From: Phenylobacterium sp.
GTDB taxonomy: Bacteria; Pseudomonadota; Alphaproteobacteria; Caulobacterales; Caulobacteraceae
DNA: 64,000 bases
Direction of reading: 5' to 3'
Assembly: GCF_025351295.1 (NCBI RefSeq)
Contig: NZ_JANXWD010000087.1
Location: forward strand, 25,785 to 89,784
Part shown: positions 24,932-25,499 of the stretch, piece by piece
How positions within the stretch are numbered: position 1 is the stretch's first letter
Layout: each line of letters begins with the position of its first letter
Position numbers and translations under genes: made by a program
Notes under the pieces: model-generated
Told to the model about the DNA's origin: nothing
The model's database searches: none
The model's input: the letters and a program-made list of their open reading frames with translations, nothing else

Positions 24932-25159
24932 ATGCCAACGTTCAGAGCCGTTACAAGTGCGAGCAGCGACGTGATCCACGTCAACGTGGAGCACGTCGTG
25001 TATGTTCAGGCTGTCGACAAGAATTTTACCACTCTGTTCCTGCTCGGGAGCGGGGAAATGAGACTTCAAGCCCCGGTCCACGACGTCCTTTCGCAGATAG
25101 CGGGGGTTCCGGAAGCGCCGCATCCGGCCCCACCCGTGGGCAAGGTCCACCCAAAATAG
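24932..25159 (+). CDS. small FlbD-like hypothetical protein (paralogue 1)
   Basis: 75 aa; GAGG SD; aligns with 25281-25499; lower GC. Confidence 0.75.
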   Translation: MPTFRAVTSASSDVIHVNVEHVVYVQAVDKNFTTLFLLGSGEMRLQAPVHDVLSQIAGVPEAPHPAPPVGKVHPK

Positions 25160-25280
25160 GTCTACGCAGTCCAGATGGGCGCCTCTGAGGTGACAGGCTC
25201 GAAAAGGATCGAACTTTCCTGTATGAGGCGCAGTGTCCCACGGAAAACACTAGCTTTACGTTCAGAAAGTGAGCGACCCG

Positions 25281-25499
25281 ATGCAGGTATTCGTGAGTTT
25301 TACCAAAGTTGATGGTGACACGCTGCACGTCAACGTGAAGGATATCGTCTCTCTTCAACCCGCAAACCGCATCTTCCCGGACGACACCTCCATGGTTCTG
25401 GCTGACGGAAGTTTTTTTGCCTTGCATGGAACAGTTTCAGAGAACTTGGCGCGAATAGAGGGCGTCCCGCTGGCGACCCACCCCGCCCCACTGCCGTAG
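25281..25499 (+). CDS. small FlbD-like hypothetical protein (paralogue 2)
   Basis: 72 aa; shares HVNV and GVPxAxHPAP with paralogue 1. Confidence 0.75.
   Translation: MQVFVSFTKVDGDTLHVNVKDIVSLQPANRIFPDDTSMVLADGSFFALHGTVSENLARIEGVPLATHPAPLP

Follow-up and report, generated by a model that had tools for sequence, protein, structure and literature searches.

Introduction

In Bacillota, Actinomycetota and spirochaetes the SwrD/FlbD scaffold is regarded as an accessory to the flagellum. Crystal structures of SwrD (the same protein as FlbD) from Bacillus subtilis and Borrelia burgdorferi define a core of 48 residues, made up of two strands, a 3-10 turn, three further strands and a terminal helix, beyond which the C-terminal tail is disordered (Nair et al., Protein Sci 2026; PMC13740483). 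SwrD forms a hexameric ring in which strands 1 and 2 of one subunit complete the sheet of its neighbour and the pore is lined by Asn15-xxx-Ile/Leu19, a motif conserved in the 3-10 turn (PMC13740483). The same authors describe LytTR and ComK as single-chain ‘dimers’ of the SwrD-type unit and report that a LytTR domain of Bacillus cereus is similar to a dimer made up of SwrD subunits (PMC13740483). Here we describe two small adjacent open reading frames (ORFs), ORF1 and ORF2, in a stretch of 64,000 nucleotides from Phenylobacterium sp. (contig NZ_JANXWD010000087.1; this whole stretch is called the window below, and positions refer to it unless another contig is named). The source genome is a metagenome-assembled genome (MAG), 99.9% complete and in 167 contigs, from a sediment metagenome. 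Our overall reading, which we hold to be reasonably probable, is that the DNA carrying the pair is a phage-derived remnant, that ORF1 and ORF2 are two divergent SwrD/FlbD-like paralogues whose products probably form a ring with displayed tails, and that the hairpin repeats lying beside them are unrelated to the pair.

Results

ORF1 and ORF2 are predicted to be genuine, paralogous genes

ORF1 (24932-25159, plus strand) encodes 75 aa and ORF2 (25281-25499, plus strand) encodes 72 aa when read from its ATG. A GTG at 25269 provides an alternative start for ORF2 that would give 76 aa, but the ATG is favoured by the match of M1 to M1 in the alignment with ORF1. A Shine–Dalgarno-like GAGAGGA (24918-24924, plus strand, as read from the sequence) lies 7 nt before the ATG of ORF1. 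BLASTP aligns the two products with 25 identities over 70 positions (36%), three gaps and E=1e-12, the common blocks being an N-terminal F..T....D..HVNV...V..Q and a C-terminal I.GVP.A.HPAP. The first-pass annotation, which had been made from the letters of the window, had listed paralogous ORFs of 75 and 72 aa with about 25 identities in about 70 positions, and both this count and the coordinates proved exact.

The manner in which the two sequences differ was used to ask whether they had diverged as proteins. Identity at codon positions 1, 2 and 3 is 0.53, 0.68 and 0.37 respectively (68 aligned codons), different codons are used at 12 of the 26 residues identical between ORF1 and ORF2, and the Nei–Gojobori estimates of non-synonymous and synonymous divergence are 0.58 (dN) and 1.92 (dS, saturated), giving a dN/dS of about 0.3. 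The BLOSUM62 score of the pair is 107 in frame as against 33-34 in the two other frames, which contain stops, and the G+C content at the three codon positions (0.67/0.39/0.68 in ORF1 and 0.62/0.38/0.63 in ORF2) follows a coding pattern. As divergence peaks at third positions, similarity is confined to the reading frame and ORF1 is modelled as a compact fold (see below), ORF1 and ORF2 appear to be real genes that have diverged as proteins under purifying selection, and their translation is predicted. It should be noted that, apart from one marginal homologue, sequence searches returned no relatives of either ORF, that the Shine–Dalgarno sequence of ORF2 is weak (GTGAG) and that scans of the islet in which they lie for sigma-70 promoters and terminators found no promoter-like or terminator-like site, all of which would suit frames that are open by chance in foreign DNA that is decaying or in a non-coding fragment that was duplicated. 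An Rfam scan of the islet also gave no match. Such a chance origin is nevertheless very unlikely given the low third-position relative to second-position identity, the dN/dS value, the codon differences at identical residues, the stops and low scores of the other frames and the confidently modelled fold of a known class in ORF1. A 133-aa ORF on the minus strand (25026-25427) was considered and dropped, the conservation between the paralogues being specific to the plus-strand frame.

ORF1 is predicted to have the SwrD/FlbD fold

An AlphaFold2 (AF2) model of ORF1 was built from an alignment of four modules (predicted local distance difference test, pLDDT, 75; 82-88 in the core). It begins with strands at residues 4-9 and 14-18, which lead through a single helical turn (19-21) to strands at 22-27, 33-37 and 41-45 and a helix at 49-56. 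The core (residues 4-56) is followed by a Pro-rich C-terminal tail (GVPEAPHPAPPVGKVHPK), which is disordered in the model (pLDDT below 50). The order of the elements is that of the SwrD crystal structures, and ORF1 is therefore predicted, on the strength of this model, to have the SwrD/FlbD fold. When the model was compared by Foldseek with the predicted viral structures in BFVD, dozens of tailed-phage proteins of 59-90 aa were matched with template modelling (TM) scores of 0.6-0.83 and root mean square deviations of 1.1-2.5 Å over 55-62 residues. At least eight of these are annotated ‘Flagellar and swarming motility protein’, the phage models labelled FlbD having TM scores of 0.65-0.72, and the other matches include N4 gp27 and a protein of phage Muddy. 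Adjacent pairs of proteins of this fold were looked for in Muddy, where the sole candidate, gp62, is present singly and falls short of significance at the sequence level.

A single marginal sequence relative carries two fused modules

Detectable sequence relatives of the pair are extremely scarce. A word-indexed search of 5.8 billion clusters with ORF1 returned only the query itself, tblastn against phage (50,697 genomes) and plasmid collections gave no match and neither did scans of genome, viral and metagenome contig collections with back-translated patterns. When 1.84 billion cluster representatives were searched exhaustively by HMMER with a two-sequence profile, a protein of 114 aa, designated P0007 (E=5.8e-4, two matched stretches), was identified, and this is the sole sequence-detectable relative once low-complexity false positives are set aside. 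Four other candidates from this work (P0003-P0006) were rejected as false, multi-stretch low-complexity matches, P0005 and P0006 having internal repeats. P0007 consists of two modules of this kind fused head to tail, and hhalign matches the ORF1/ORF2 pair to it with 94.8% probability. Its second module matches PF06289, the FlbD family, with a sub-threshold E of 0.0013, and the name given to it by the Joint Genome Institute (JGI) is ‘YlzI (FlbEa/FlbD family)’. P0007 had no match among viral contigs.

The gene for P0007 lies on a metagenomic contig of 3864 nt (L030; JGI 3300045261), directly after three paralogous genes. These are consecutive, encode 411, 351 and 292 aa and share an N-terminus of about 60 aa (…LPNxSGATVQSxDVQxGDxAYDxT…CTDATPxAA) beyond which they diverge; one of them has a right-handed beta-helix (Beta_helix) domain. 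We read the three as tail-fibre-like, and they look like alternative fibres of one phage tail. Among the four modules ORF1 and ORF2 group most closely with one another, and each is nearer to the N-terminal than to the C-terminal module of P0007. The duplications in the window and in the P0007 lineage were therefore independent, and the fusion in P0007 is supportive of a pairing of ORF1 with ORF2, but as non-orthologous evidence. Both ORFs also weakly match a phage protein family, phrog_13926 (E=0.009 and 0.11).

The register of the pair on FlbD

For comparison with FlbD itself, 120 real PF06289 proteins were gathered from databases with a consensus-like bait, and 40 of them were aligned. The four-module profile matches these 40 proteins in register across the full domain (hhalign 71%, E=3.7e-5), and the two P0007 modules score 6.1 and 10.2 bits against the FlbD hidden Markov model (HMM), values equalled by one of 2000 and none of 2000 shuffled sequences, respectively. 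In the hhalign register N18, V22 and T33 of ORF1 fall on Asn15, Ile19 and Thr28 of FlbD, with Q26 in place of Glu23 and without Pro-Asp, so that three of six positions agree. ORF2 has the Asn and the Ile, again Gln for Glu23, and a P-D-D-T that falls on the Pro26-Asp27-Thr28 loop, and agrees at five of the six; its tail is GVPLATHPAPLP. The pore motif, as Asn-xxx-Ile/Val, is thus apparently kept in both ORFs, judging by the alignment. A six-frame search of the genome with PF06289 gave no signal at the locus of the pair; this genome lacks the family, as do 151 sampled genomes of the phylum.

The pair lies in a lineage-specific islet

ORF1 and ORF2 are contained in an insertion of about 0.95 kb between a glutathione S-transferase (GST) gene and an acyl-CoA ligase gene (24826-25778; the boundaries are approximate, the left at 24809-24826 and the right near 25778). 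G+C content in 200-nt windows is 0.505-0.60 across 24900-25700 and 0.66-0.78 on both sides, and third-position G+C (GC3) is 0.63-0.68 in ORF1 and ORF2 as against 0.88-0.95 in the neighbouring host genes, so that the low-GC islet described in the first pass is borne out. A Logan contig of 2.3 kb, obtained independently from the sediment metagenome of origin, covers 24300-26400, including the islet and both junctions, with six differences, and the islet and its junctions are therefore no artefact of the assembly of this MAG alone.

Orthologues of the acyl-CoA ligase with 78-84% identity are found in four congeners, in two of which (G020 and G015; loci L011 and L012) the GST gene is also syntenic. 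In G020 and G015 homology to the window (blastn, MAFFT) ends at 24825/24808 and restarts at about 25779-25858, the two genes there being separated by no more than about 35-70 nt. No homologues of ORF1 or ORF2 were found elsewhere in their own genome, and six-frame profile searches of 36 same-genus genomes, 24 further genomes of the order and 400 of the class returned only noise. Because the site is empty in two congeners, GC3 is foreign and 60 relatives from the genus and order have no homologue, horizontal acquisition, which the first-pass annotation had also proposed, is the best reading of the islet from sequence comparison. A flanking direct repeat or target-site duplication was not significant (alignment score 23, shuffle mean 22.9).

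It might instead be argued that the pair is ancestral to the host and was deleted in its relatives, being neither acquired nor phage-derived. The exact GST–ligase junction is seen in just two congeners, so that polarity is set on few genomes, and the putative insertion has neither a mobility gene nor a target-site duplication. Set against these points are the GC3 difference from the neighbouring genes, the lack of a homologue in the 36 same-genus genomes and the 400 of the class, and structural neighbours that are overwhelmingly phage proteins, and we consider ancestry in the host highly improbable. We therefore retain acquisition by horizontal transfer, with a phage as the most likely source.

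Proposed assembly and role

The arrangement that we propose is that a foreign, most likely phage-derived, DNA remnant became inserted between two host catabolic genes and that it encodes two very divergent members of the ‘beta1-2 / 3-10 turn / beta3-5 / helix’ (SwrD/FlbD-like) superfamily. By analogy with SwrD hexamers and RemA octamers, the products of ORF1 and ORF2 would probably co-assemble into a small ring; co-assembly is thought probable because this architecture has a cross-subunit sheet, because the genes are adjacent and because the relative, P0007, is a fusion of two modules. Outside the core the paralogues have only the GVPxAxHPAP tail in common, and this tail is disordered in the model, which suggests that it may be a peptide motif for a partner, and the ring would then display multiple copies of this disordered, Pro-rich, partner-binding motif. 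A more specific version, in which the subunits alternate in a hetero-oligomeric SwrD-like ring (e.g. A3B3) whose six conserved GVPxAxHPAP tails offer a host protein a multivalent ligand, is put forward tentatively, by analogy, and we regard it as possible rather than probable. If such a hetero-ring is formed it would represent a phage-borne, non-flagellar branch of the SwrD/RemA/LytTR superfamily that is a two-gene module here and has been fused into one chain in one lineage. A flagellar role is not expected because neither the genome nor the 151 genomes of the phylum contain PF06289 and because the locus is catabolic.

The first-pass annotation had envisaged nucleic-acid binding, and small DNA- or RNA-binding regulators of the neighbouring catabolic operon, resembling RemA or LytTR, deserve consideration since the SwrD-like scaffold is common to the DNA binders RemA, ComK and LytTR. 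A LytTR structure from B. cereus (3d6w) is a weak structural match to the ORF1 model (rank 39 in the Foldseek search of the PDB, TM 0.49-0.50, E=1.5) and the ligase gene is situated directly downstream of the pair. The proteins are, however, neutral to acidic, with calculated isoelectric points (pI) of 6.5 for ORF1 and 4.9 for ORF2 and with five and four Lys plus Arg residues as against six and eight Asp plus Glu; the ORF1 model lacks any additional element between beta3 and beta4, the site of the Arg-bearing DNA-binding insertion of RemA; and no LytTR Pfam match was obtained. DNA binding by the ORF1 and ORF2 proteins is unlikely because of these pI values and the missing RemA-type insertion in the ORF1 model, and a role as such regulators is likewise unlikely. 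SwrD itself is probably not a DNA binder, on the same grounds (PMC13740483). A non-flagellar protein–protein scaffold or modulator would be the likelier role for the products of the pair.

Points that weigh against this interpretation

A number of results count against reading the pair as phage-derived, ring-forming members of the SwrD/FlbD superfamily. With regard to structure, the AF2 model of ORF1, at a pLDDT of 75, is based on an alignment of only four rows, the BFVD targets that it matches are themselves predictions, and the search of the PDB returned nothing significant (best E=0.026, to PH-like domains and Sac7d), in a PDB set that is without FlbD by sequence. A single-sequence AF2 model of P0007, used as a proxy for the hetero-pair, reached a pLDDT of only 38.6. 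With regard to sequence, neither ORF has a Pfam match at E≤10 (hmmscan) or an NCBIfam match, and ORF1, ORF2 and P0007 have no match at E≤1 among the PADLOC models for toxin–antitoxin and anti-phage defence proteins. The two window ORFs alone align with FlbD in the same register as the four-module profile but with an hhalign probability of just 2.4%, and in an unfiltered hmmsearch with the FlbD HMM ORF1 scores 0.6 and ORF2 1.3 bits (the Pfam gathering threshold is 24.7), scores equalled by 83 and 49 of 2000 shuffled sequences, respectively. ORF1 and ORF2 accordingly fall outside PF06289, and by sequence their link to FlbD appears weak and transitive. This was the outcome of the profile check against PF06289 and LytTR proposed at the first pass, where a resemblance to FlbD and to half of a LytTR fold had been noted: the resemblance holds at the level of the predicted fold, in the SwrD/FlbD topology and the FlbD-labelled phage matches, but membership of either Pfam family does not. 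Two population single-nucleotide polymorphisms (SNPs) fall in ORF2. One, 25478 C>G, is synonymous, and the sole informative one, 25410 A>C, is non-synonymous (S44R). Finally, no phage genes adjoin the pair in the window, and phage origin of the islet, most likely as we consider it to be, is drawn from the structural neighbours, the weak PHROG match and the context of one relative.

The adjacent hairpins belong to dispersed repeat families

Two inverted repeats (IRs) follow ORF2 within the islet, and the first-pass annotation had taken them together with the pair as one candidate small system. The first (hairpin family 1, 25520-25605) is a doublet resembling REPINs, the hairpin-forming doublets of repetitive extragenic palindromic (REP) sequences, with perfect 16-nt arms, GACAGTTTACTCAATT, at 25528-25543 and 25582-25597 and a variable GC-rich loop. 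Its RNA fold has a predicted energy of −41.8 kcal/mol (z=−4.8). It is preceded by a direct repeat, two copies of TTTCAGGATT (25503-25522, plus strand), which is a degenerate form of the ATTTCGGT(G) sub-repeats found before the other copies of the family. Across the genome 13-15 occurrences of the arm were counted on eight contigs (a control pattern, 0), as five doublets and four single arms, and the MAG is fragmented at some of the copies; most copies are convergent doublets whose loop is GC-rich, variable and about 36 nt long, and they have the ATTTCGGT(G) sub-repeats in front. The arms in the window read ACTCAATT / AATTGAGT and those of most copies ACTTAATT / AATTAAGT, the same base being changed on both arms. 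By sequence this variant would be a compensatory pair, through which the 16-bp stem stays perfect.

On contig C74 (C74:1182-2116) arms at 1182 (plus), 1234 (minus) and 2101 (minus) flank, in inverted orientation, a gene for a 220-aa IS200-like Y1 transposase (Y1_Tnp, RAYT-type; C74:1392-2054, minus strand; PF01797, E=3.9e-9). The form of the arm there is GACAGTTTACT(T/A)AA(T/C)T. Arms that flank a Y1 transposase gene in inverted orientation are the arrangement of a REP-associated tyrosine transposase (RAYT) and its REPINs. None of 24 congeners has the family, and with only about 10 sites in the genome and none in these congeners the REPIN/RAYT system itself looks recently acquired. A second Y1_Tnp gene (C87:186-700; PF01797, 36.8 bits) lies at the start of its contig beside a variant arm, AATTAGTGCACTGTCACCGTAAT, with a similar string on contig C90 near 2380, and this variant may represent a sister subfamily of REP sequences. 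At two or more loci an IS110-family element abuts the outer end of a family 1 arm (reading …AAACTGT, then T gtctaattgatttcatgg…) and the contigs end 124 nt into it. The IS110-family loci are C1:47427-47550, C90:3290-3413 and C68:5004-6304, the last with the transposase (C68:5004-6056; PF01548 and PF02371), and it is IS110 insertion that broke the assembly at these arm sites. Targeting of REP sequences is a known behaviour of IS110 elements and fits the insertions at arm ends.

The second repeat (hairpin family 2, 25692-25761) is a doublet with arms AACCGCAGAAAATG / CGTTTTCTGCGGTT and folds barely better than shuffled sequences (z=−1.85). Doublets of this family occur on about 10 contigs (C6, C23, C36, C37, C49, C53, C57, C60, C147 and C151), with arms AACCGCAGAAAACG / CGTTTTCTGCGGTT, often with internal 9-nt reiterations (CGCAGAAAA/GACG) and with loops of 32-74 nt. 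No transposase was found to go with this second family.

The position of the IRs directly after ORF2 and within the inserted segment, the great stability of hairpin 1 and the same variant base on both of its arms, with pairing kept, would be consistent with a single functional or mobile unit, such as a cassette plus the site at which it recombines, or a protein plus its operator. Against this, arms of family 1 occur at 15 places on eight contigs and doublets of family 2 on about 10 contigs, among unrelated gene neighbours none of which is a homologue of the pair; family 1 arms flank the Y1_Tnp/RAYT gene; the ORFs have hairpins to one side only, and no flanking direct repeat reaches significance; and the arms (GTTTACT) do not fit the attC core GTTRRRY. 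Since the hairpins are dispersed without the pair and the pair is single-copy in the genome, we reject the pair and the IRs as one small system, a combination that we judge most improbable. Co-occurrence of the pair with these IRs elsewhere, which had been suggested as a check, was looked for with the result that the hairpins recur in their own genome but never beside a homologue of the pair. They are dispersed intergenic repeats that share the islet and are no partners of ORF1 and ORF2. A reading of hairpin 1 as an integron attC site was likewise dropped, as its arms GTTTACT / AGTAAAC do not fit RYYYAAC / GTTRRRY and its partner genome-wide is a Y1 transposase rather than an integrase.

The catabolic surroundings of the islet

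The host genes that flank the islet, both on the plus strand and with a GC3 of 0.95, are the GST gene (24017-24808; Pfam GST_N_3/GST_C_2) upstream and the gene for the AMP-binding acyl-CoA ligase (25870-27732; Pfam AMP-binding) downstream, and the neighbours of the pair, taken together, encode GST, enoyl-CoA hydratase and acyl-CoA ligase. The region 19894-30574 contains three GSTs, several enoyl-CoA hydratases, an alpha/beta hydrolase, the acyl-CoA ligase and a TonB-dependent receptor, all co-directional, and looks like a glutathione-dependent cluster for the catabolism of aromatic or unsaturated acids that is interrupted by the islet, in agreement with the insertion in a catabolic cluster described at the first pass. 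In two runs (X3 and X4) the contig of a related organism matches the GST gene to its stop (24806 in the window) and then continues with unrelated sequence, AGGCTCTGGGCAGAGGG…, so that, as far as these sequences indicate, some member of the population or some relative has a different downstream neighbour at the GST junction.

Discussion

The SwrD/FlbD ring scaffold, for which a structure was published in 2026, appears from this work to have very divergent stand-alone relatives that circulate in phages and that land in a phylum in which FlbD itself is absent from the 151 sampled genomes. The importance of the pair is modest, and lies partly in its being a worked case of an apparent orphan microprotein that was resolved via structure and not via sequence.

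Of the systems with which the locus was compared, the repeats of REP/REPIN–RAYT type concern only the neighbouring IR. Hairpin family 1 shares with them the inverted doublet, conserved arms, variable loop, intergenic dispersal and arms that flank a Y1_Tnp gene, but differs in its AT-rich arms without the classical GTAG motif, in its absence from 24 congeners and in having only about 10 sites. REP/REPIN copies typically number from tens to hundreds, far above this family.

The pair itself is like SwrD/FlbD (YlzI; PF06289) of B. subtilis and B. burgdorferi in its length of about 70 aa, in its predicted order of elements, in its disordered C-terminal tail, in the Asn-xxx-Ile/Val at the 3-10 turn and in the Thr at the beta3/beta4 loop, with Pro-Asp there in ORF2 as well. 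It is unlike them in its scores of 0.6-1.3 bits against a threshold of 24.7, in its location outside a flagellar (fla-che type) operon, in the replacement of Glu23 by Gln and in being two tandem paralogues rather than one gene, and whereas the tail of SwrD/FlbD is highly charged that of the ORFs is Pro-rich and uncharged. The closest structural counterparts are the phage proteins of FlbD fold (N4 gp27, Muddy gp62 and phrog_13926), which provide the best structural matches and are likewise stand-alone, in the same length class and quick to diverge in sequence. They share no significant sequence identity with the pair (tblastn, 50,697 phage genomes), the pair is in a bacterial chromosome without phage neighbours, and the copy in Muddy is single, not a tandem pair. 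P0007 resembles the pair in having two modules of the same kind in tandem, but these are in one chain and without HPAP tails, arose by their own duplication and follow tail-fibre-like genes.

LytTR, RemA and ComK share the beta1-2/3-10/beta3-5 scaffold with the predicted fold of the pair, as is reflected in the weak match to 3d6w. LytTR (PF04397) is a domain of about 100 aa with two units in each chain, is usually fused to a receiver and has a DNA-binding surface, whereas each ORF has a single unit of about 55 aa without a Pfam match, stands alone and is acidic, with no basic surface or visible DNA-binding insertion. The pair is thus a highly divergent addition to a known scaffold superfamily, without sign of a new mechanism or system, and is most like small phage proteins, while its tandem arrangement in the window, or the fused one in P0007, echoes the apparent two-unit build of LytTR and ComK.

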